DNA of 64,000 nt, taken from contig MU004231.1 in the NCBI GenBank assembly GCA_010405405.1, positions 546,153 to 610,152 on the forward strand. The letters run 5' to 3'. Of the stretch, positions 9,432-64,000 are shown one piece after another (position 1 is the stretch's first letter; every line of letters starts with the position of its first letter). The notes beneath the pieces were generated by a model. It was given only the letters and a program-made list of their open reading frames with translations, did not search any database and was not told the DNA's origin. The DNA is from Microthyrium microscopicum (lineage: Eukaryota). Position numbers and translations under genes: made by a program.

Positions 9432-11409
9432 ATGTCTTCGCATTTGCTGTACACTCAACTAGATGAGTCGCGCTGCGAGATCCGCCTGCTACGAATCCTT
9501 TCCGACAGATTGGATAGCGCTGTAGAATGCAAGTGGGACATCGTATCACTTCAGGATAAGCCCAAGTTTACCGCTCTTTTTTTACGTATGGGGCGACGCT
9601 CAAGTTACAGAAGACATCCTCGCCAACGGTTGCACAGTATCCGTCACCAAGAATCTTGCGGCAGCACTTCGCTATGCCAGAGGGCACTGGCAGACCGCAT
9701 ACCCAGGCCGTGATCCTGGCGAGTTTCGAATTTGGGCCGATGCTTTATCCATAAATCAAGATAATTTGGACGAACGCAGCAGTCAGGTGCAACTCATGCG
9801 CTCAATATATTCCGATGCGGAGCTGATGATAGCCTGGTTGGGTAGTGGACTCGAAGGCATAGATAGCGCACTTGAGAAGCTCACTATTATCGCCGAGGAA
9901 ACGGAGCAACAAGTCAATCAAGTCAGCATTGGCTGGTTCTCAAAGTATCCTTCTTGGTTTATCAAAGATGATGACGCGGTTCGAATGTGGACTGCGTTTT
10001 GGAACTTCTCAGAATTGGATTATTGGAGGCGAATATGGATCTTTCAAGAATTGCTCCTGGGAACGAACATTCTTTTTGCTCATGGCACCACAAACGCACC
10101 CCACCGGAAACTTTTTCAGGCTTCCGACTGGCTTCGCAGAATGATCAAAGCTAATGATGCTGGACTACTCCGTGTGCCTGAAATTTATACCGATCTTTTC
10201 ACTCTGACAGGTTGGTTTCAGCTTGACAGAATTGCTGAAGCTCGCAAACGTATGCAACCGCTCAGAGTGCTTCCTACCAGCGATATTGAGTATTTGTATC
10301 AACGATTCGGTGATCTAGTCGCTACTGATCCTAGGGATCACGTTTATGCTCTTCTAGGATTCCTCGAAACTGATATCATACCAGACTACAAATTATCCGT
10401 TGAAGAAGTTCTTCGCAGCTACATCGATCTCTATGTACGAACCACAAAGTCGCTCGTGTTTCTGCATAGCGCGGGATTTGGTAGATTCGATAGTGTGCCG
10501 AATGATTCGCTTCCTAGTTGGGTACCAGACTTTGCGAAATGCTCTGAATATGCACGATCCTCACGAGGATCCCAATTTGGCGCAGCTCTGATATCATTCG
10601 ATCATGGACGCGCTGACAAAAACTTGTTCAACGATTGTCCAGATCTGCCACAAAAGCATGGGACCCGATTGCAATCTGCTGCGCTTTTCGTTGCCAGAAT
10701 TCAGACAATGCACCACTCTCTTCCGGAGATGTCATATCTAGACGGCACTTTGTACAAATTTGTCTGTGACATGGTCAAATGCTATAAGCTGGAACACAGT
10801 AACTCAACTCGCAGCGATTCGAATCCCAGCAAGGTGCATCATCCTCTTTCCCAAATCTTTTGGGCATTAGTGTCGAATCTGGTTACAGAATCGGAACATG
10901 GGGCTATCCCGCACGCCATTGCATTCTTGATGATTCTTCTTATTCACCCACGAGCCAATGGCCACTGCGAGACAGATGAAGACTTACTTCAAGTTTTGGA
11001 GCTGGATTTGGGACTGTCGACAGAAAATGGTGTACCATTGGCAATACTCAACGCCTTTAGCTTCCTTGATACACCAGGGAACGTTGAGTATGTTAAAAAG
11101 CTCGTAGATGAACAAGGATATCTTGGGCACCCGCATACGATGGTTCTGAAAGGACTCTGGGCAACTCAGGTCCTGTTTCGTTTTGCAAGTCTAAGCATCG
11201 GTCGCCTTGCTTTGGTTCCCCAATACTCGCAAGCAGGAGATATTCTCGCAATTTTGAAAGGGTGCGGTGTACCGATTATCCTTCGTGAGAAAGGAGATGA
11301 CTATTTTGTAGTCGGGATTTGTTTCATGTACGGGTTGATGTATGGTGAAGCTGGTTTGACGGATCTATCACAACGACAAGACTGCTTCAAGGTCATAGAT
11401 CTGGTATGA
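9432..11409 (+). pseudogene. HET-domain (heterokaryon incompatibility, HET-6-like) gene with a +1 frameshift
   Basis: EIRLLRI...KFTAL, then a T7 run at 9577-9583. The next frame reads YVWGD...TKNLAAALR...IWADALSINQDNLDERSSQVQLMRSIY...YWRRIWIFQE...ATDPRDHVYALLG...LPSWVPD...GDILAILKGCGVPIILR...VVGICFMYGLMYGE. Confidence 0.85.
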
Positions 11410-34278: not shown

Positions 34279-35130
34279 TGGGCAGCTTGATTGTAATATA
34301 AGTACTTAGATACGTTGGTGATGCGCAAGGAAAGGTCACTGTCCGCAAATGTCTGCAGGAACGGAATCGTTTTCCTTTGAGAATGTAGCATTTTCTGCAA
34401 TGATGTTGCTCTCATGCAAGCGGCCACAATGTCGACAGGATAGATGGCAGGCGCCCATGAAGAGCCTAAGTCGCCATAAGCTATAAATTAGTAGTACTTG
34501 CGTCTGCCCACATAAAAAGTCAGTACCATGGCAATTAGAGAGGTAACTTGTTTTGTAGCTCTAATAGTAGCCATCGTCGCGGATGGAAGTGTGCCAGTCA
34601 TTTCTAACCCAAGTCACTTGGCCGCCAACGATTATGATCATATGAGATTTTACTTGTAAAGTCATTAATCGGCCCTGCTTTAGTAGTTTTTGGTTTGCTA
34701 AGAAGACGATGTCAGAACCAAACCCACTGATTTGAGCAATATCCAATTCATGAGCTGTGTCGTGTGAGTGTCTGAGCTGGACTTCCGGGCGTTCCATGCT
34801 GTCTACTCTAGCGACTCGTGTAAACGCAGTACAGACCGCCATTCAATCACTCACAAAATGCTTGAAGGTATTCACATCTAACTTCAAACCGGCTTTGGCA
34901 GTTAATCAAAAGAGGGTTTGCAATACGGTTTGCGAGAGTAGAATCAATGGCTACTTATACTTGTCTTTGGACAGTAGTTCCCTATCATCACAAACTTCAT
35001 TCATTAGCTTTGATAGCTATCCAGCATATACAGTCTTCTACAACTTCTAATCATACTATCTTCTGCTCGAGAACTGTTGATCAGATCTCCCTCATCACAA
35101 CATCAGTACTACAACTCGTCAGCTTGCGTC

Positions 35131-36429
35131 ATGAAGCCCACTGAGAAAACACACGTCAAGTTGGGACCATCTGGATACTGGTTCACGCACAAGCAAGCTG
35201 AATGGTATAATCGATGGTTCGAAGACCAAGTCAATAATTATGAGCTCTTCCCCAAGGGCGAAGCAAACCCAAGCCTAGTGAGGAAACTGGAAAATCTCAC
35301 ACTGATGACATTGCCATCGTTTGCACAAGACCAAATCACACCACGAGTTCGACTACAGACACTCAAACGTGGAAACGAGGTGCCAGAAGACTGGCTCCCG
35401 ATCGACTGGCAACATGCCGGTTTCTTGCTTGCCAAAAAGAGTCTCTATGAAGCCCGGCCGGGAGAGGTCGTTGCGTATGACTTATCAGGCAAAAACTTCA
35501 AGCCTGCGTTCCTGAAGGAGGCTTGCAAGAAGCTTCTCGACTCTATCATTGATTTTTATACCACCAATTATCCCAACTTCTACACGGAGAATCTGAAAGA
35601 CAAGACCGTCACCGACCAACTAATGCTTTCAACCTACAAGCGGAAGGACTACAACGACAGACCACTTGAGCTTGCTACTCTGCTGGCACCTGCCGACTTT
35701 ACAATTTTGCTGCCTGGGACAGAAGTAGATGCAGCAGGAAATCGGGATTTCTATCTCGCCGCGACAACCACAAGTTGGGCAGCTGGCTGGAAGGTAGAGG
35801 AACGTACTGGCTGGAGCATGGCACGAGTCCATGAGCTAGTTCCCGACTGGAAGAACCAACCTGGAACAGGTGTAAAGGCTCTATTCAACAGACTCGCCAA
35901 TGATCCAACCCGAATCTTCGCAAGATATTCCTTGTTTCCACAATTTCATACTAACCACAAATCGCTTGACAGCTTTCTCAACGTACGAGACGGGGAGGAC
36001 TTTTTTCCCAACCACGAGACAGCTACAGCATATGATTTGACAATCAGACGAGAGTATCAGCAGCTACACTCCATTACTGGAATCAATGGAAAGCCAGGCA
36101 TTGACGGGACAGCCATAGTCTTCACTGTTAGAACGTACATGGTCCCCCTCATGGACTTGCCGAAGGAAGAACTGGAGCTTTTTGCTAGACAGCTGCTCAA
36201 GATAGAGTCCAAGCATCCTGCTCAAGTCGACTACAAGAACATGGCAGCATGGAAACCCTGCGTGGTGGATGCGCTCTACAAGGCTGGCTCCACCCGAAAC
36301 GATACGCTCATAGAGCAACTGGAGGGGTTCGTTCCGGCAGCTGACAAAGTTGATCAAGCTATTTGGACCTCTGACAATGGTAAGCCGGCTGAGCGGATAG
36401 CAATCGAGACGCAATGGCATCTTTACTGA
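35131..36429 (+). CDS. DUF3445 family protein (paralogue 2), intronless
   Basis: DWLPIDWQH, PLELATLLAPADFTIL, WAAGWKVEERTGWSMARVHELVPDW, IRREYQQL and VFTVRTY. Confidence 0.85.
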   Translation: MKPTEKTHVKLGPSGYWFTHKQAEWYNRWFEDQVNNYELFPKGEANPSLVRKLENLTLMTLPSFAQDQITPRVRLQTLKRGNEVPEDWLPIDWQHAGFLLAKKSLYEARPGEVVAYDLSGKNFKPAFLKEACKKLLDSIIDFYTTNYPNFYTENLKDKTVTDQLMLSTYKRKDYNDRPLELATLLAPADFTILLPGTEVDAAGNRDFYLAATTTSWAAGWKVEERTGWSMARVHELVPDWKNQPGTGVKALFNRLANDPTRIFARYSLFPQFHTNHKSLDSFLNVRDGEDFFPNHETATAYDLTIRREYQQLHSITGINGKPGIDGTAIVFTVRTYMVPLMDLPKEELELFARQLLKIESKHPAQVDYKNMAAWKPCVVDALYKAGSTRNDTLIEQLEGFVPAADKVDQAIWTSDNGKPAERIAIETQWHLY

Positions 36430-53628: not shown

Positions 53629-54522
53629 CTAGGCATTTCGCGCACTGCGTCGTGGCTTGCCATCGGCAGTAGCAGCTGGCTTTGGCTCTCTCTTCTTTGC
53701 TGGAGCCTTCTTCTCTGAAGGAGCTTTCTTCTCGGTAGAGCCCGCGGCCTTCTTAGGGCGACCGCGTCCCTTCTTGGCCGCTGGTTCGTCGGTCTTTTGT
53801 TTCTTGGAAGCTGGCTCTTCTTCAGCAGCCTCGACCTCCTCTTCCTTGTCGTCCTTGGAGTCTTCCTTGTCGCCGTTCTTGTCGGCTACCTCGACATCGA
53901 GGGCGCGTTTCTCGCCAACACTGGTCTCGCCATTGGCTTTTTTGGAGTTAGTTTCTTCTTCAGCCTCATCATCATCCTCGGATTTCTTCTTCTCAGTCTC
54001 CTTCTTCGCGCCATTAGAGGCACCATTGGTAGCACCATTGGAGGAGGCTTTCTCTTCAACATCAAGTTCATGCGCACGCTTGACAACATCGTTGCCCTTG
54101 CGCCCAACATGCACAGCAGGATCTTCAGGGTCTGCCTTTCTTTTGATGGTATTGCCCTTGTTTGACTGGATCGATATTTCGCCTTCTGTGGCTACTTCAA
54201 CGACCTCTCCAGACGGACGAGCACCAGACCATTTCCAAGAGACTGGAATAGCGGGAAAACACCCGGAGTTAGCTCGGACTTTGTAAACAAGGTACTGAGC
54301 CAGCTCGACGCGCGCGCGGGGGGTGGGAATAACAATAAAGGGGAAGATTTGTTTTGTGCAACATTGAAAAGGTGGGCGGTTCGATGCATGATGCAATTGA
54401 GACAATGAGGATTGCGGTCGCCGAAGAACAATCGGGCGATGTGGGAAGAAATTCGCAAATCAATAACACACAGCAGAGAAAGACTTACCTTGGTCGCCCT
54501 TCTCAATGCTCTGTTCAGCCAT
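53629..54522 (-). CDS. Hva1/Tudor-like (DUF2945) domain protein with charged tail and AT-hook-like motif
   Basis: MAEQSIEKGDQ|VSWKWSG..PSGEVVEV...GNTIKRKADPEDPAVHV...DVVKRAHEL; KKGRGRPKK near the C-terminus; intron at about 54248-54488. Confidence 0.8.
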
Positions 54523-56569
54523 AGTAATGACGTATGAGGGGAATTGGGTGGTTGAGTAGAGGAATGCGGTTTGGTGTGTAAATAGATGGTTGATGGTCGC
54601 GTAAGGGCGTGCAATGGATTGAGAAGAATGGAATGTATGCGCAATGGAAAGGTGAGGTTGGAGATGTCGATGACAGAGATGCGCGAGTTGCTGTGGACCG
54701 TCTGGAAGGAAAGGGAAGCTACACGGTCACGGCGGATGAATTGGGGGCAACTGAGTAAGCTTCAGTTTAGGGGGCTCTGGGCTCAAGTGGTCGGTGATTC
54801 GTGCAACTGTCCCCCGTCCTCCCCCAGATCAAGATGAGGAGAAGCTGTTCAAGGGGCGCTCTAGCCGCCTTCTTATTATTTGACCCACTTTCACGACGTC
54901 ACGAAAAAAGCTGACGATTTAATTGCTTGGTAAATGTCTAGAAGTCTGGATAAATAATACCTGGGCCTGGCAGTGTCTATGATTACTGCGCCGGCTGACC
55001 CGTTTTGCTGCAAGAGCCCGCGCGACTGTTGAGGTGGTTGGGGACTTTAGATCTACAGACAAGACTGCATCTCGAGCTGTTGAGCAACTTGTAACTTGGG
55101 CCAGAAAGCAAGCAAGCTTCCGAGGCGAGTCAGTTCTGTGCTGAATCCCGATGAGACCTTCCAAGTTACCAAACTCCTTGTACCTCCATGTGGAGACACT
55201 GGTACATCCACCGACGTAAAGAAGGTGCCCTGTTCAATGCTGCTACTTGCCAGTTAACTTTGACTTGTTTATCTGAGCAGAGGCTGTCTGGGGATCTATT
55301 GCTTAAGCTGTTATTGCTCGAGCTCAGTCCATCAGGGGAAGCTTCTTAAATGGACCCCAACTACCGACATCACTATTTTGATAACACGAAAACAGTCATT
55401 GGCTTGAGTAGAAGCTGGTAAGGACTTAGTAAGGACCGTAGAACGTGCGCTATGTAGCAACTAGCTAGCAAGCGAGGCAAGCGCAGGCAAATGTTGTCAT
55501 TTATATTGCCTCTTAGCAGATCCAAGCAGCATAACAGCTCAACCTTCCCATACTCGGCCAGATCTGTTGTACTCAATCACGTTCAAACGCTGGCCGAAAC
55601 CCGTGGAAAGAAGCCGCACAAGCGCGTATTGAGATCAATGATCCTTTTGCAAACAGATAAATAGTTTAAAGATTGGCTTGAACAAGCAATACTCCAGAAA
55701 GTCAATCTGGCAAGCTCCTCAGACGGCGTGCTGTGCCTCTGGCTGTGTGGCCACATCAAACTCACCACCCAGGCCAAGCAAACCCAAACGGGAAACAACA
55801 AGACCAATAACAATCTCCAGGTAGCCGGAGGAATTGAACACATGCAGTGCAGGCGTGCGTTGCTTGGTGCTTTTCGTCAAAGCAGGCCTTGCCCGTCTTG
55901 CCCGTATCAAAAGATGCCAGTGCTTTGGGATGGATATTATTAACAAGATCAGACAAGATTTGGCTGGGCTTTGGGGATTGCCCTGGGCCTTTTTGCTTGC
56001 TTGTGCAAACTGAGAGGGCTGGCACTGGGCAGGCAAGGCAGGCTGGGATGATAACAGTAGAGTAGGTGGGCATTTTAACCGATTGTCAGTTAGCAGGCTA
56101 GATTGGGGCTAGGCCGGCTGGGTGCGAGTTTAATGTCACCAATCAATCTTCAGATAGCCATTTGGGATGATGCGGTGGGTCGATTGTTGCGTACGCGATT
56201 AAGAGCTGAAGCCAAATGCGAACAGTCGATTTGGACACACTTGGGAGACAAGTATGGGCAAAATGGGGCTCAAACGATAGCCAGTTCTCGGGCGGTCAGT
56301 TTGAGCAACTAGAATAGAATTATTATCGAAAAGTGCGGTATTGCAGCGCTTGTAAAGAAGCACAAAGTAAGGGCGGCAGGGCGCTGTATGGAGAGTCTGA
56401 GCAGGAAAACTGACACAGGAAGAGGCAGCGCAATGTTTGGGCAAGAGCTGTTGGGGCAGGTCTGTGCTTCCTAACAGTAACAGCAAGACGGGCAGGTACG
56501 GCGGTGTTGCCGGTGTGGAGGGGAAGGAACTGGGCAAGGAAGGGGGAAGGCGCGTTGGAAGAGTTTGGG

Positions 56570-56650
56570 AGCTGCCCTCTCCCCTCTCCCATACTTTGGC
56601 TCTGCTCTGCTCTGCTCTCTCTACCATTTCTCTCTCCTCTGCACAGTTCT
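56570..56650 (+). promoter_or_regulatory. pyrimidine-rich (CT-box) promoter element upstream of NHP6
   Basis: Long C/T tract (ctctgctctgctctgctctctct) before a 5'UTR containing a GTATGT..CTAAC..TAG intron at about 56970-57235. Confidence 0.5.
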
Positions 56651-57257
56651 CACTCCGTACCAATCCTCACATACAAATCGCAGCCTACAGTAAGTCTCCC
56701 ATATTTTTGCCTACAGCCTTGTCCATACTATTCTGGTGCCTATTACAACTATTCAACCACAACTTCGATATTTGTATTTGTCAACCTCCAATTGACCCAA
56801 ATGTCTTCATCTACAACCCTTCTCGTCTGCTTTTTGAGAAAGACTCGCATTTCGGTCTTTCCCATCTTGCCCATCATACATTGCATCAGCATGCAACGTC
56901 AACACTACTAACTCGCTACTCTTCAGTCTGCGATTCTTATCAAAAGAACCAGCATATCTTCCGTGACAGGTATGTTCTGATTCTTTCGCTGCTTTGTATT
57001 GTTTCTACGCGTCTGTCTTGACTTTGGTGTTGTTGTGCTTCGCGCGTTCTTCAGCCTCAAAGCAAAGAACTACGAAGCTCAATCGCAACTCCAATGTTGC
57101 AACAGTATTCTTCTTACCACATGAGAGTTCTCGTTGGCTATCATCAGGCTGAATCGCGTCACGCTTCCTGTCACTGTTCAACCTCTCCGCATTCTCTCCG
57201 CTTTCTCCACTGTATTCTAACTAACCTTCCAATAGTCAACTCCAGCAAAACACCAAC

Positions 57258-57785
57258 ATGCCAAAGGAAGCCACCAAACGTAAGGCCAAGGAGACCAAGG
57301 TCAAGCGCAAGAAGGGTCAGTTTCCTTGTGAATCTTCAATTTTCATCTAGCTAACTTTTGCAGACCCCAATGCACCAAAGCGTGGCTTGTCCGCCTACAT
57401 GTTCTTTGCCAACGACAACCGTGACAAGGTTCGCGAAGAGAACCCCGGTATCAAGTTCGGTAAGTTTAACCACCATCTCACTGCATTATGTCTGCGTGGC
57501 AATTTGACACGTGAATGATGTATATCCATTGTTCCCATTACTAACTAGTTATACAGGCGAGGTCGGCAAGATCCTCGGTGAGAAGTGGAAGGCCTTGACA
57601 GACAAGGAGAAGATCCCATACGACAAGAAGGCCGCTGATGACAAGATTCGCTATGAGAATGCGAAGGCCGCCTACCAAGCCGTAAGTTTTGTTCCCAATT
57701 CCCTTTATTACTATCATAGACCGTGTTCTAAACGCTAACAAGGGTGATGAATAAGGGCGGTGATGAAGATGAGGATGAGGAATGA
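57258..57785 (+). CDS. NHP6: HMG-box non-histone chromosomal protein 6
   Basis: [68 protein letters not shown], acidic tail; 4 coding exons. Confidence 0.96.
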
Positions 57786-58168
57786 TTGTTTCTTCTTTCA
57801 TGAGCTCCGCTGATGTGACTTGCGGTCTCTCTTTCGTCTTTTGATGGGCTGAATGGATTGATGGCGATGAAGGAGCTTCCGGTTTAGGGGGGTCCAGTTT
57901 AATTGTTCCTTCTTCTTAGTTCCATTAATGGATTGGTGATATCCAGTAACTGCCGTTGTATGATTTGTATTGCCCGTTTCTTCTTTCGCTTCCAATGGTG
58001 TATGTTCGTTGTTACTCTACATCATCATCCATGATGTACTCTCCTATCGTTGCTGCCAGGTTGTGGATTTCCCACATCCCTCTTTCTTCTTGTATCCTAT
58101 ATATCTCCCGTTGTGTTCTGTTGTTGTTTCTCATGTTAGCAAATCTTGTTCCTCAACCTTCATGTCCG

Positions 58169-58272
58169 TATCCGCAAGAGCTTGGAATCAGATGTCATGG
58201 TCCACAACGGCAAGGTTTGTCTCTACAATACCCGCAAGAGCTAGGAAACACCAATATGCCATGGTCCACAAC
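58169..58272. repeat. imperfect direct repeat, 60-nt period
   Basis: ta(t/c)ccgcaagagct(t/a)ggaa(t/a)ca...atg(t/c)catggtccacaac at 58169-58208 and 58229-58272. Confidence 0.85.
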
Positions 58273-59931
58273 ACCTGCTCTCCGCGCAGCACTCCGGATT
58301 CATACGATATACACTTACCTAACAATCCCCACAATCCCCTCTCTAGCCATCACCAGCATCCAACCCACCTCCCTCAAACAAGCACCCCCCAGGCCAACCG
58401 CCGCGCCTTCTGGCCCCAGCAGCGCCGTGAGCGCTGCCTCGGCGCAGAAGCTGGCTGTTCCCCGGATGAGCTGGAAGAGGAAGAGGGTGGGTGCTGGGCT
58501 GGTGGTGAAGAGCCAGAGCAGCTCGGAGGCGGTTGGTGGTTGCGTGTTTTGGGCGTGCACGCGCACGATGTGGATGTTGCGGCGGTGGTGGTGGTGGTGC
58601 TGGGCGTTCATTGCGGCGGGTTGGTGTTGGTGTTGGTGATGATGGTGGTGGTGGTGTTTGGGAGGGAGAGATGGCTTTGTTTGGTGGTTTGTTGGGGGTG
58701 TTGATGTCGTCGTTTTTGGGACGAAATGAGTAGGTGAGCTTTGAATTTTGATATTATTACCTGCGAGGGTGCCCTCGCGGCAAGGCTGCTGGCCAGTCAG
58801 GCTGGCTTCGTGCCAGTTGGTCAATGTCGTGAAAAGTTCTTCTCCATTGCGAAAGTATGATTGCGTTTGCTATTGCTTGTTGCTACTATGTTTGCCATGT
58901 TCTTCTCACTCTTTTGAACCATATAATGTACCCTTTTTGAGAATAGTTACCCGTTGTCTGATAGCTTCAGAATCGACCTTTTTTGGCGAAAATTCCTTCT
59001 TCTCCCGGCCATAGTGCTATCTTGTTCATTTCATTGCACTTACTATCTTTTATCATGTTCTCCTTACCTTGTTATACCTTATTCAGTTCCTTTTTGGCCC
59101 ATTACCGGTTTCCTCCTCCTTTTCAGCCTTTTTGCCGGCGCGGACCGTTTTCCTCCCAACCGCTCCTACACCTCAATTCGCTATCCAATGCCCGCATCAC
59201 TCTACAGATAATACCAAAAGACGCACCAGCTCTTTCTTACCCAGCGCTACTTGATTTTGAGATGATCTTGCTCCTCTACGACATTCGCCATGCAAACGCA
59301 ACATCACCTCTAACGGACCCTCCCACCCCGATTCACGCGAGCTATACTTTATACTGGACATACTTTGAACTTGGACGTGGACTGGAAAGGATCTGGAAAC
59401 AAATCTATGAACTTAGGACGCGAGGCTGATGCGGAGTGGTTGACGGAGAATCCAGTCCGGGACGGCAAATGACGCTCAAATCTGCTGCCTTTGCGGACCA
59501 TTCGTAGGATAACTTAGATCGACTTGGAATGTCAATGGACTTGGTTTAAACTATCTCATAACGCTATTCTATGGTTTCTTATTCTTGGATTGGATGTCTG
59601 GAGCTTCCTGGCGTGAATCTTGTCCCTGACGCATACCGTTTTTGACCCACAACAACGAGGAAATTGCTTCAAAAGGACACAGGTTATGGACTATTCTAGA
59701 TACTATCCCTTCCGTAGACTACATGCCGTCCTTCCGGACCTTTTATATGCCTTCCTGGCCTTCTAGAGTCCCAATTTCCAGTCTTGTCGGCACCAATCGG
59801 AATTTCAGTGGCTCCGAGCATATCAGGCAACTCCCGTGACCCGAACATTGGCACTGCTGGCTCAAAACTCATAGCAAAAACTCCCCTCCGCTGCTTCTTC
59901 TTCTCTCCCAAGTCACCAACAAACCACCAAG

Positions 59932-60318
59932 ATGGCATCTCACATTGCCCTCCGCACCGCCACCACCACCACTCACCGCTGGGACGAAACGTCCATCACC
60001 ATGGACCATGAGGGCGTCCACACCTTCCTGCGCCTCAGGCGCTTCTCCTACTGGAACAGTAGCTCTGGCCAGTTCCACCACCAAACCGTACGTTCCAAGC
60101 GAGTGATTCCCATACAAAACAGGAGGGAGTACTAATGGATATACCAGGTGGCATACTTCTTTGTCACCCACCCACTCTTTCCTGCGTCGAGGACGCGGTC
60201 GGCGTGGACAGACGATCCAACCTTCGTCGTCACGCCCGACGTGGGCCTCGACGTATGGCCTTTCTTGATGGTTCCGCCCATCTTCATTGAGCAACCCTTT
60301 TCCCCATTCTTTACTTAA
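59932..60318 (+). CDS. small orphan protein (about 108 aa), 2 coding exons
   Basis: caagATGG start; canonical intron 60088-60147 joins ...QFHHQT|VAYFFVTHP...PFFT*; two more canonical introns follow the stop. Confidence 0.55.
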
Positions 60319-63300
60319 TTCCGACATGTAAGTACCGCTCGAAACGGCGGTTGGAATGGCTACTAATGGACATCAGACATCAATTTCTTCATTCCGACCC
60401 ATCCGTAAGTTGTCACCCGTCAAGCCAATGGGAATTACTGCTAACAGTAAACAGACATCAACATCTCTTCTCTTTTCAGCAGCATTCGATACCCCTATAG
60501 TTTTATTTATTTTGTACAATTAATGTACCCAGGATGGACTTATCCTCCTGCTGTTTCTGTACTTTCCTTCTCTACTACTTTTTTGGACTGTTTGTGATTA
60601 CATCTTTCTGTTCTTTGTGTTTGCTTCATATCAAAGGAGAAGATCGGACTACAAGGAAAGTTACGTACCCCATTTACTTCTGTTATTTGCAACTGCTAAC
60701 TGCATATTCGGTAGCGGCGCCAACCGCGCAACGGTCGCCTTGCTGGCAGTCGCAGCTTCGGGAATTGGCAATTCGGTATCTCAAAATCAAGCACTTCCAG
60801 AGCATCACTCCATACGATGGCGCTTCAAATGGTAAGCTTCGCATGATAGTTTTCAACTCTTTATGACTTGAAAGCTAACATTGACTCAACCTCAAATTGA
60901 AGCGCTTTCGAAGAAAATCTCACTCGGTCAGCCAGTCAACCCTTGGATGATTTGTCGCGCATCAATGCAAAGGTCTTCGTTATGTCCTTTCAGCTTCAGA
61001 ATTTGGCTATTCAACAAAATCTCGCCGCTAAAGCATGAAAATACGTTGCTGCGCGGAATATAACTGGCACTGGGGGAACATGACAAGAAAAATATCTCCT
61101 CGACCAGCAATTTCAGACTGTCCCTCACCGCCATTTGACACAAAACCAACAGCTTGCCATGTAATTCGGCTCCGCTTACACTGAGGAACCTTTGAAAACA
61201 CCTGCAGCGTGTGCCGTGGTGCGTAATCGAAGAAGTGATGGCACAATCCAGGGATTCGAAAAAGTACTCCTTCCCACTCCCATCACAACTCACCGTGCAG
61301 AATCAAAAGCATCATATCCCACTGTCAGATGGCTTTGACTCTTGTTGCATAAGATTTGAAGCCTCGGTGCTGTTAATGACAGCGCATCCTACGTTCAGAA
61401 ATCGATCCAATGTCACAGCGAGCAGCAACCGCCTACAAAGACCGGACCTCATCGCATTCATACGAGCAAACATTATTTCCTCCATCAAACAAGATATTAT
61501 GCAGAGACAAAAAAGAGCTGGGATATTTCATGCTACTGCTGAGCAGCGTTGAGGTGGTCGTTGGTGATGCACGGTACTCTACCTGCAGCCTCCACGTGCC
61601 CCTTTTCCGGTCTATTTGTTACCCCTGAACGTGCATTGGTACCGTTTTCTCCAACTACAACTCTACTTTTGCAGTGGCTGATGAAATTTTCAAGAGAATT
61701 ACAAGACAATTCTATTCGTTGCAAACTCTCAGGATTCATCGTTCTGGATCTTCTTGTCAAAATGGCAGCATTTTGCCCCTGAACAGCAGCGTGGACACTG
61801 ATCCGCTGGATCATACACCAAAATCTGGCCTCCGATAACCGCTCACGAAGATCAAGTGGTCAAAATAGTTCCTCCTTTTTTTCTACAATTTACGAGTATG
61901 TAATTGTATAGGAGACCTTATTGGAAGTCGAAAGAACATAATTCAAGAGCATGGGAGCCCACGATTTCGAAATTGGATGGATTTGGCAAATTGGGCGTGT
62001 ACTATATGTACAAAAGTTCTGAAATTTCAGCTTAACTTTGCGGCCCATGCAACAAGAATTTCTTCGGATTTTCAAACGCGACCTAACCCTTCTTGATGTC
62101 TCTGATTCGGCGAACCCCCACGGCGATCAGGAAGGACGTAAGAACTACCTATCTAAGAAGACTGCGGTCTGGCTGGGATGGCTGTTGCTTCATCTGACTG
62201 TTTTCTAGCAGTTGGCCGTTGCTAAAGCCTAGAGTTGCATGGGGAGGGCGCTCCGCAGGGTCAAATTTTGGAACCAGCAGTGACTAGCATAGCTTTCACA
62301 GCAAAAACACTTTACACTTTTTTTTTGCTAGCTATTGGTTCAATCCTGGATGGCGACAGAAGTTTGCGGCCCCTTTTTTTGCGTAAAGGAGAGGGAGATG
62401 CTCTTTTGCTACGATGGAAGAGGAGGTGTCTATATCATACATTCTCTTGGTGGAGGAGTTGTGTATTGATGGCGCTGACAAATGACTGAGTGGAGCGTAT
62501 AGTTCCCCATCAATTGGAAGGTCAACAGATCGATTCCTAGCAAGGGCTGAAAGTCAAGAAATTCCTTTTTTTACGCTGAAAAGGGTATCAGGATGCTCTC
62601 TGGCCAAAAACGACGACGATGGATTTTTTGAAGACGATATCTTGGTGAAAGAGTTGTTTTCAGAGGATAGGGTCGGCGGTGATGCTTCATTGAGGCAGTT
62701 TGGTGGAGTTCGCTGTGCCCCTGAGCTTCCGGCGGTTTCATTGAGAGCAACGGAGCAGAAAGAATTGTTCGGATTTTGCATTTCCAGAGCAGGGAGATAT
62801 AGGCTGGAGAAGATCTAAGTCCAGGGACTTTTCGCAACTCTATTCTACGAGGAGCACTGGTATGGATGTACGATAAGGCTGACCGAGTTCTGCTCCGTGG
62901 TATCATGAAACTATACCAGCAGCAGTCACGAATGGTATAGTATCAAGGCTTGGATCTTTGGCAGAAGCTTCAAAACCACTGGAACACTGTATCCATAAGC
63001 AATTGGGCATCTTGGAATTTGGTTTATCTGACATATGTCGGAATTGAACATACCATCATACAATCGGTAAACCACTACACGATCAACGCGATTCTAGAGG
63101 CACATTCGGTAAGAGGCAAAAACATACTGAAAGGTTTCTTTTGTTGACTTCTACAGTACTGAGGCATTTATGTTTCATGTCCAGAAGCATTTGGTGTGGC
63201 ATTCAATTGGATTTTATACGGAGAACTTGCCTTGTTCTCTCGAGCGGAAGAGTCTCCAAAAGCCGCAGAGCTCATGGTGTTTTGGCCGACACACCCCCCG

Positions 63301-63709
63301 AAAACACGCTCCACCACCATTAAATAAATATTCGAAACGATGAGGCCCCTATAATGCCTCTTGTGAGTCTCCGAAAAATACTTTTAGAAAGTGCAGCATC
63401 TTGTGTGGGTGCTGGTGGCTCAAAAGCAGACGGTGATGCCCATTTTCGAGCACTTTTGCGCTATCACCAAAAGCTTTACGGCACCACTCCCAGCACTTAT
63501 GCCTCACAACACAACTGTTTCCTGCTGAAATACTGTAGATACTACGGCAGTCAGTTGTCTAATAGCCGCTACAAAATTTTCATTACATACATTGCCAACA
63601 TACATCCAGGAAACACACGCAGCCCAACAGCAATTCCACGAACACCAAACAAGGACTCTGGAATTGCACTATATGATTCAAAGTTTGGAATTTCTCTTCA
63701 AAATGTTCA

Positions 63710-63895
63710 GGCGGGTTAGCTCAGTTGGTAGAGCATGGCACCATTAGCGCGTTTGTTGGGTGGGTATATATCCCGGTAATATGTTTTAGCAGTATTGTCA
63801 TACAGTATTGTTATACATGTTACCCGTCGAATAATACATGTTGGATAATCGCGATGGGACTGCTAGGGTCAGGAGTTCAAACCTCTTACCCGCCA
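63710..63895 (+). tRNA. atypical intron-containing tRNA(-like) gene, nominal anticodon ATT (Asn), 113-nt intron 63747-63859
   Basis: Acceptor GGCGGGT/ACCCGCC plus A73; D arm GCTC-AGTTGGTA-GAGC; anticodon stem TGGCA/TGCTA; T arm AGGAG-TTCAAAC-CTCTT; A and B boxes intact. Confidence 0.85.
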
Positions 63896-63900
63896 AATTC

Positions 63901-63907
63901 TTTTTTT
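63901..63907 (+). terminator. RNA polymerase III terminator
   Basis: T7 run beginning 6 nt after the tRNA discriminator base. Confidence 0.8.
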
Positions 63908-64000
63908 GCTGGTGGTTGGTGTGGTATCGTGCCTTTTTTGGGCTCGTTGGATAGCTGTGGCCTCGAATTGGTACAGCATGATTTTTTGGAGACGATCGAG

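Follow-up and report, generated by a model that had tools for sequence, protein, structure and literature searches.

Anticodon-mutant or orphan tRNA genes are flagged, together with pseudogenes, in many eukaryotic tRNA gene sets, and typical pseudogenes among them have broken stems or lost promoter boxes. For the tRNA splicing endonuclease of eukaryotes, the ruler provided by the mature domain and the anticodon-intron pair suffice. Introns of archaeal tRNA genes follow the strict hBHBh' form, with two 3-nt bulges, exactly 4 bp between them and helices on either side. The best-known tricRNA intron of flies is reportedly about as long as the 113-nt intron described in this study. In A. niger, the Lys(TTT) genes have an intron of 12 nt, a standard U33 loop and G73 (PMC6108506). 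Citing its reference 63, the same study states that no fungal tRNA intron of more than 100 nt had been found, and 14 ARAGORN models with such introns were removed as implausible. Fungi ligate tRNA exons via Trl1 and, according to the available excerpt of PMC4090602, are reported to have no RtcB-type ligase. In yeast, free tRNA introns (fitRNAs) are regulators of mRNAs to which they are complementary, and a Trl1-dependent circular form of the Trp(CCA) intron is known as well (PMC13079951, accessible part). Metazoan tricRNAs derive from long structured introns of tRNA genes with a BHB-like motif (PMC6614914, accessible part). In Neurospora, the major milRNAs are products of Pol III, and one of them, milR-4, is released from a tRNA precursor by cleavage (PMC3547838, accessible part).

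Here, we analyzed a split class I tRNA gene at positions 63710-63895 (+) of a window of 64 kb, by which we mean the whole stretch of DNA under analysis. The gene consists of a 73-nt body and a 113-nt intron. With the Lys(TTT) genes of A. niger it shares the Pol III type 2 layout, the intron one base 3' of the anticodon (after A37), the oligo-T run, the general form of the D arm, the 73-nt class I body and the pairing between loop and intron, in which C32 lies on the intron -3 base. It differs from them in the length of the intron (113 nt instead of 12 nt), the loop (CCAUUAC instead of the standard U33 loop) and the base at position 73 (A instead of G). The splice motif has the two 3-nt bulges, the exactly 4 bp between them and the flanking helices of the archaeal introns, with 8 of 8 pairs being Watson-Crick, although the host looks fungal (HET domain) and shows no sign of archaeal origin. 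This is more than the eukaryotic endonuclease needs. As for the yeast fitRNAs and the circular Trp(CCA) intron, an excised ascomycete intron could persist and act here; the fitRNAs described in the accessible part of PMC13079951, however, are short introns of normally decoding hosts, whereas the present one is a long and structured candidate. The metazoan tricRNAs are similar in being long, structured and equipped with a BHB-like motif but, as far as the accessible part of PMC6614914 goes, they are circularized by RtcB, the enzyme reported absent from fungi (PMC4090602, excerpt), and they come from host tRNAs whose anticodon loops are normal. Neurospora milR-4 is likewise a Pol III transcript of a filamentous fungus in which a tRNA moiety directs the processing of a hairpin. 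According to the accessible part of PMC3547838, it adjoins tRNAs and is freed by RNase Z, whereas the hairpin of the present gene is intronic and its release would fall to the splicing endonuclease. The features of the locus are listed in the following.

63670..63675, + strand: TATATG, a TATA-like word 35-40 nt upstream of the first tRNA base, read directly; putative role in Pol III initiation
63710..63746, + strand: 5' exon, tRNA positions 1-37, with the acceptor 5' strand, the D arm, the anticodon stem 5' strand and the loop C32 C33 A34 T35 T36 A37 (63741-63746)
63717..63728, + strand: A box, positions 8-19, TAGCTCAGTTGG, read by standard numbering against the consensus
63741..63744, + strand: CCAT, loop positions 32-35, 5' strand of the central 4-bp BHB helix, 4/4 Watson-Crick with ATGG at 63854-63857
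63747..63859, + strand: intron of 113 nt at the canonical 37/38 position, BHB register
63748..63751, + strand: CGCG, outer helix h' of the BHB, 4/4 Watson-Crick with CGCG at 63850-63853
63775..63824, + strand: intron hairpin of 50 nt with 22 bp including G.U and a 3-nt loop, recurring in whole-gene folds
63790..63815, + strand: tandem 13-nt duplication CAGTATTGTCATA / CAGTATTGTTATA, copies at 63790-63802 and 63803-63815 with 92% identity, forming the hairpin tip
63850..63857, + strand: CGCG-ATGG, intron 3' strand of both BHB helices, from the pairing score
63858..63860, + strand: GAC, 3-nt 3' bulge, with the cut predicted between A 63859 and C 63860 by the established BHB rule
63860..63895, + strand: 3' exon, positions 38-73, with C38 (63860), the anticodon stem 3' strand, the variable loop GGGTC, the T arm, the acceptor 3' strand and A73 (63895)
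63874..63884, + strand: B box, positions 52-62, AGTTCAAACCT, read by standard numbering against the consensus
63901..63907, + strand: T7 run, Pol III terminator-like, starting 5 nt past A73, read directly

The window resembles nuclear DNA from a filamentous ascomycete; its ORFs encode HET, AMP-binding, amidase and Sec63 domains, and its GC content is 43-49%. An ORF at 9766-11409 (+) encodes the C-terminal portion of a HET (heterokaryon incompatibility) domain, another at 35077-36429 (+) a haem-dependent oxidative N-demethylase alpha-like domain; both genes are of accessory type and served only to assign the window to the filamentous fungi. There is no ORF of at least 250 aa in the last 9.6 kb (54406-64000) and none longer than 121 aa in the last 3.5 kb (60500-64000). 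The tRNA gene sits in this ORF-poor stretch, which is without a RIP signature.

Read against standard tRNA numbering, all 21 stem pairs of the tRNA form (19 Watson-Crick, 2 G.U). Universal or semi-universal bases are present at 17 of the 18 positions scored, which include U8, A14, G18, G19, A21, U33, G53, U54, U55, C56 and A58; the sole failure is U33, which is a C. A box and B box are intact and an oligo-T terminator lies downstream. With respect to the hallmarks of pseudogenes, no stem is broken and neither box is lost, unlike in typical pseudogenes. The single locus, the non-standard anticodon and the loss of a universal base are shared with the anticodon-mutant, orphan and pseudogene tRNAs of other gene sets. 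All features that an earlier, sequence-only reading of this DNA had listed were recovered in place. The locus is a structurally intact fungal tRNA gene with an intron that is unusually long but of textbook shape.

ARAGORN with introns allowed detects one gene in the 64-kb window, which is this locus, and default ARAGORN detects no tRNA at it. Rfam gives no match at the locus at gathering thresholds. The Rfam tRNA model does not match positions 63500-64000 even at E up to 10, as expected because the gene is split by 113 nt in the unspliced sequence that was scanned. In tRNAscan-SE 2, intron and variable region together are reportedly limited to about 116 nt by default, a length that this gene (113 + 5) would exceed. 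ARAGORN itself reports a tRNA-Pro(GGG) with the 113-nt intron at the non-canonical position 32/33 (63742-63854), by which T33 is restored. The T33-G-G string of this model is the mere complement of the paired C-C-A, and GGG is not the preferred Pro anticodon of eukaryotes. In the 32/33 register only 2 of the 8 BHB pairs form (1+1), compared with 8 of 8 Watson-Crick pairs at 37/38, which supports the latter register and a spliced loop CCAUUAC. Some tRNA genes in the S1 Table for A. niger appear by eye to carry inserts at non-canonical sites, but the body of the present gene differs from the A. niger Pro genes (PMC6108506), and we regard the Pro(GGG) assignment as hardly credible.

At 37/38 the locus forms an exact hBHBh' motif, in which the helices are separated by the 3-nt bulges TAG (63745-63747) and GAC (63858-63860) and C32 (63741) is paired with the intron -3 G (63857). 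The sequence-only reading had proposed a canonical splice geometry that is complementary to the odd bases C33 and A34. This is borne out by the BHB pairing score, and the pairing of the intron is slightly better than was described there (4+4 Watson-Crick pairs, two 3-nt bulges). Mononucleotide shuffling of the intron gave 4+4 pairs in the 37/38 register, with G.U allowed, in 70 of 200,000 cases; the anticodon-intron pair alone was obtained in 51,360 of 200,000. A fold constrained to the cloverleaf and the BHB reaches -64.2 kcal/mol, compared with -65.8 kcal/mol for the unconstrained fold, i.e., the constraint costs 1.6 kcal/mol.

A tRNA-like fold could also arise by chance and be called falsely with a long intron, like the models discarded by the authors of the A. 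niger study as implausible (14 ARAGORN models, introns >100 nt, PMC6108506). ARAGORN with introns allowed does yield chance calls, namely 2 in 60 dinucleotide-shuffled windows, but the introns of these calls measure only 37 and 16 nt. Moreover, the present locus combines 17 of 18 universal positions, 21 of 21 stem pairs, the exact BHB (70/200,000), both boxes and the T7 run. A chance origin of the tRNA-like locus is therefore very unlikely, and the probability that we would assign to such a false call is close to negligible.

The gene region was compared with contigs from independent data sets and showed no difference in contigs of three studies (X3, X5 and X6). X3 is possibly derived from the source's own reads and X5 carries another organism label and belongs to another study; their contigs of 10,090 nt and 3,215 nt, respectively, extend over the whole 701-nt stretch compared. 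X6, from a third study, contributes a 274-nt contig over 63613-63886, which stops short of the gene end, with a depth of 3.9. In a further data set (X7) the gene is not covered. The identity across the three studies indicates that the odd bases C33 and A34 are not assembly errors, and the unusual loop noticed in the sequence-only reading has thus withstood this objection. X5 is a putative RNA data set, but its 3,215-nt contig spans ORF-poor sequence and was not counted as expression. All data sets compared consisted of contigs, and no splice joints were reported among them. X5 holds 0.87 of the words sampled from a 4-kb stretch, corresponding to an estimated divergence of about 0.5%, which is too little to gauge the conservation of a gene of 186 nt.

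No second copy of either exon core was found in the 64-kb window at up to 3 mismatches, and blastn within the window gave nothing that resembles the intron or the flanks. A de Bruijn assembly with 31-letter words usually ends a contig wherever one of these words is repeated. Since the 10,090-nt contig of X3 and the 3,215-nt contig of X5 cross the gene unbroken, the genomes of X3 and X5 are probably without a paralogue sharing the exon halves. A probable single copy also means that the gene is not a very recent copy from a multi-copy isoacceptor family. The sequence-only reading had suggested a family of genes with the same body and variable anticodons; the unbroken contigs and the missing second copy in the window disfavour this idea.

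In the prokaryote genomes, a 22-nt word comprising the D arm and the anticodon stem was found at 46 loci, 16 of which were analyzed by ARAGORN. Their loops assign 31 of them to Phe(GAA), 13 to Lys and one each to Leu and Thr, and every one has T33 and A38. The word is generic and uninformative on isotype. When metagenome contigs were searched for the same word together with a base other than A at position 38, 15 loci were obtained; all belong to one unrelated repeat family, and no fungal orthologue was among them. This tRNA-derived family (L047-L061) comprises 16 copies in the 15 loci, with two copies 254 nt apart in L055. In the copies, a degenerate anticodon arm is followed by a T arm and a T run, after which comes a conserved tail of about 60 nt. 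The family has the look of a SINE from a eukaryote present in these samples.

The occurrence of the D-arm and anticodon-stem word in these 15 repeat loci could be taken to mean that the present gene is itself a member of a SINE-like tRNA-derived repeat or of a family with a common body and variable anticodons. However, the metagenome repeats have no intron, their stems are broken, and their shared 3' tail is missing at this gene. The hallmarks of SINEs are dispersed copies and a 3' tail unrelated to tRNA, but the gene is single in the window and its terminator starts 5 nt past A73. The 10,090-nt and 3,215-nt contigs, which recurring exon 31-mers would be expected to break, point in the same direction. 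We consider membership in such a family highly improbable.

In viral contigs the 3' half of the gene had no match, and its first 26 nt had three, two of which are phage Met(CAT) tRNAs and one a locus without a tRNA detected by ARAGORN, so that this word is generic as well. At the latter locus, in a phage contig of IMG/VR (L064:220-330), the sequence downstream of the same 26 nt is not alignable to a tRNA; it may represent a split or degenerate phage tRNA. A 24-nt word of the gene does not occur in the full texts of published papers, and a 17-nt word of the D arm occurs in 11 papers, of which the 10 listed ones are, judging by title, bacterial or phage studies. Three further papers (PMC12530127, PMC10275265, PMC8216456) contained no useful facts on intron length or on tRNAs of Pezizomycotina.

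For comparison with fungal tRNAs we used those of A. niger, taken from all four parts of the S1 Table of PMC6108506. None of these tRNAs has the acceptor or anticodon-stem words of the present gene. The nearest body type by eye is Lys(TTT), which also has its intron at 37/38. A simple ancestor with T33-GTT (Asn) was considered as well. The Asn(GTT) genes of A. niger, read by eye, have a very different body and G73 (PMC6108506), so that we do not favour such an ancestor. Whichever parent is assumed, the loop must have undergone two or more changes; for Lys-, Ile- and Met-type parents the number is two or three, and none is preferable.

Several models in the same S1 Table look mislabelled when read by eye (PMC6108506). 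Those filed as tRNAPhe1/4, SeC1-3 and some of the 'Pseudo' entries read as Asn(GTT) with a D-loop insert of 55-64 nt, tRNAAla18/19 and other 'Pseudo' entries as Trp(CCA) whose anticodon stem contains an insert, and tRNAPhe3 and Asp6 as Pro(TGG) with a D-loop insert. These inserts start with GTAAG, contain words similar to CTAAC or ACTAAT and end with AG; judging from these words they look spliceosomal. No paper on spliceosomal-looking tRNA inserts in A. niger was found among the matches listed in the literature search.

U33 makes the turn of the anticodon loop, and to our knowledge A34 is not used in the two-codon boxes of eukaryotes. In the register supported by the BHB, the anticodon of the present gene is A34-T35-T36, which lies outside the standard eukaryotic set. 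The modification t6A37 is carried by ANN-reading tRNAs; as described in the accessible part of PMC8887486, yeast KEOPS does not form it on U33C or A38C mutants, and natural C33 is confined to initiator tRNAs of multicellular eukaryotes. The loop CCAUUAC contains both C33 and C38, i.e., both of these anti-determinants for an enzyme of the yeast type. The initiator tRNA of A. niger has T33 (S1 Table of PMC6108506), which suggests that fungi of this group follow the yeast-type rule. The view of the sequence-only reading that the loop has left the norms of decoding is thus strengthened, as U33 fails, A34-U35-U36 is non-standard and C33 and C38 would block t6A37 by the yeast rules. That reading also took the splicing structure to be maintained and decoding not, which would imply selection; the copies of the gene found in other data sets were all identical to it. 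The spliced RNA is expected to decode poorly or not at all.

Nevertheless, a working decoder has to be considered, in which the spliced and charged tRNA would read AAU (with A34) or AAU/AAC/AAA (with I34), possibly after base editing that restores U33. The body is flawless except for U33, and A73 in combination with U35-U36 could presumably suit a Lys-type identity. Cytosolic C-to-U editing at position 33 is not known from fungi, which together with the unused A34 counts against this proposal. C33 is tolerated in the initiator tRNAs mentioned above, but the block of t6A37 by C33 and C38 (PMC8887486, accessible part) and the T33 of the A. niger initiator (PMC6108506) again argue in the other direction. 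Altogether, we judge a functional decoder to be distinctly unlikely.

The intron alone folds at -35.7 kcal/mol (z -2.53), and 1 of 200 shuffles was as good. The fold is a rod closed by the CGCG helix, which carries the 50-nt hairpin. Because the tip of this hairpin is formed by the tandem duplication, the intron may have grown in length by slippage. The word ATACATGTT is present twice in the intron (63813-63821 and 63834-63842). An intron-borne snoRNA or other known RNA was rejected, as the only hit in an Rfam search was at chance level (mir-1000, E 3.3, 14.7 bits compared with a gathering score of 50). A likeness of 63815-63832 to the 3' end of the gene (14/18) was discarded as well, since about one such pair is estimated to occur by chance in 400 nt.

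These properties of the intron raise the question of whether it is the selected product of the locus, with the tRNA body supplying a promoter for Pol III and a handle to the endonuclease. The released intron could act through complementarity in its free linear form, serve Dicer as a milRNA-like substrate or be closed into a circle by Trl1. In favour of this proposal, the intron is self-structured (1 of 200 shuffles, 50-nt hairpin), and the loop is released from the norms of decoding and yet perfectly matched to the intron. The regulatory free introns and the Trl1-dependent Trp(CCA) circle of yeast (PMC13079951, accessible part) and the Pol III-made milRNAs of Neurospora with the tRNA-derived milR-4 (PMC3547838, accessible part) provide precedents. 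The metazoan route to circles is unlikely because the RtcB-type ligase is reported absent from fungi (PMC4090602, excerpt). The chance-level Rfam hairpin does not speak for a dedicated product, and within the 64-kb window there is no antisense match to the intron of more than 10 nt. A hairpin made of a tandem duplication also fits neutral growth by slippage. We therefore regard selection for the intron as unlikely. The same holds for the more specific idea of a dedicated intron-RNA gene, whose non-decoding loop would be tuned to pair with the intron for precise release of a rod-and-hairpin product by the endonuclease; we treat it as doubtful.

The most likely identity of the locus is that of an orphan tRNA copy, not of an RNA gene of a new kind. 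Our best explanation in full, to which we give about even chances, is a single-copy nuclear tRNA gene that can be transcribed and spliced and whose anticodon loop has departed from the decoding norm. Transcription by Pol III would be directed by the A and B boxes and end at the T7 run. Cuts by the tRNA splicing endonuclease would follow in both 3-nt bulges, after A37 and before C38, and a Trl1-type ligase would then join the exons. The predicted product is a 73-nt tRNA with the loop CCAUUAC, in which C33 would remove the uridine of the U-turn, and which may be a near-inert orphan. For the history of the gene, we infer that the anticodon loop drifted away from decoding, whereas the helix between loop and intron stayed, or became, fully paired. 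Isolated tRNA genes with odd loops do occur in another filamentous ascomycete. The A. niger model tRNAIle6, read by eye, has a Lys(TTT)-like D arm, the loop TTAATT, a 9-nt insert followed by A, and C73 (PMC6108506).

Several observations stand against plain drift. Long neutral drift to a body that is unlike any paralogue should also break stems, and none is broken. C33 and A34 are both Watson-Crick paired to the intron, which looks like upkeep of the splice structure and not like random decay. RIP was rejected as a source of the odd bases. The TpA/ApT ratio is 0.85 locally and 0.72 in the window, and (CpA+TpG)/(ApC+GpT) amounts to 1.21 locally, so that no RIP-type signature accounts for the damage; moreover, RIP does not produce T-to-C changes. 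In addition, no parent isotype can be named for an orphan copy, the 5' words of the gene being common to bacterial Phe, Lys, Thr and Leu tRNAs and to phage Met tRNAs. The undamaged body and the pairing of both odd bases with the intron count against plain decay and keep the idea of a scaffold for the intron alive.

If the gene were indeed dedicated to its intron, it would be a natural case of a tRNA body serving only as promoter and cutting guide for an intron-borne RNA, and it would link the free-intron regulators of yeast, the circular intron RNAs of flies and the small RNAs made by Pol III in fungi. The value of an orphan tRNA copy, our preferred explanation, is practical. The gene is missed by default ARAGORN, by the Rfam gathering thresholds and by the published filter for introns of more than 100 nt (PMC6108506). 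Judged from its sequence, the locus indicates that a well-formed fungal tRNA intron of 113 nt can exist, and a filter of this kind can therefore lose real genes.
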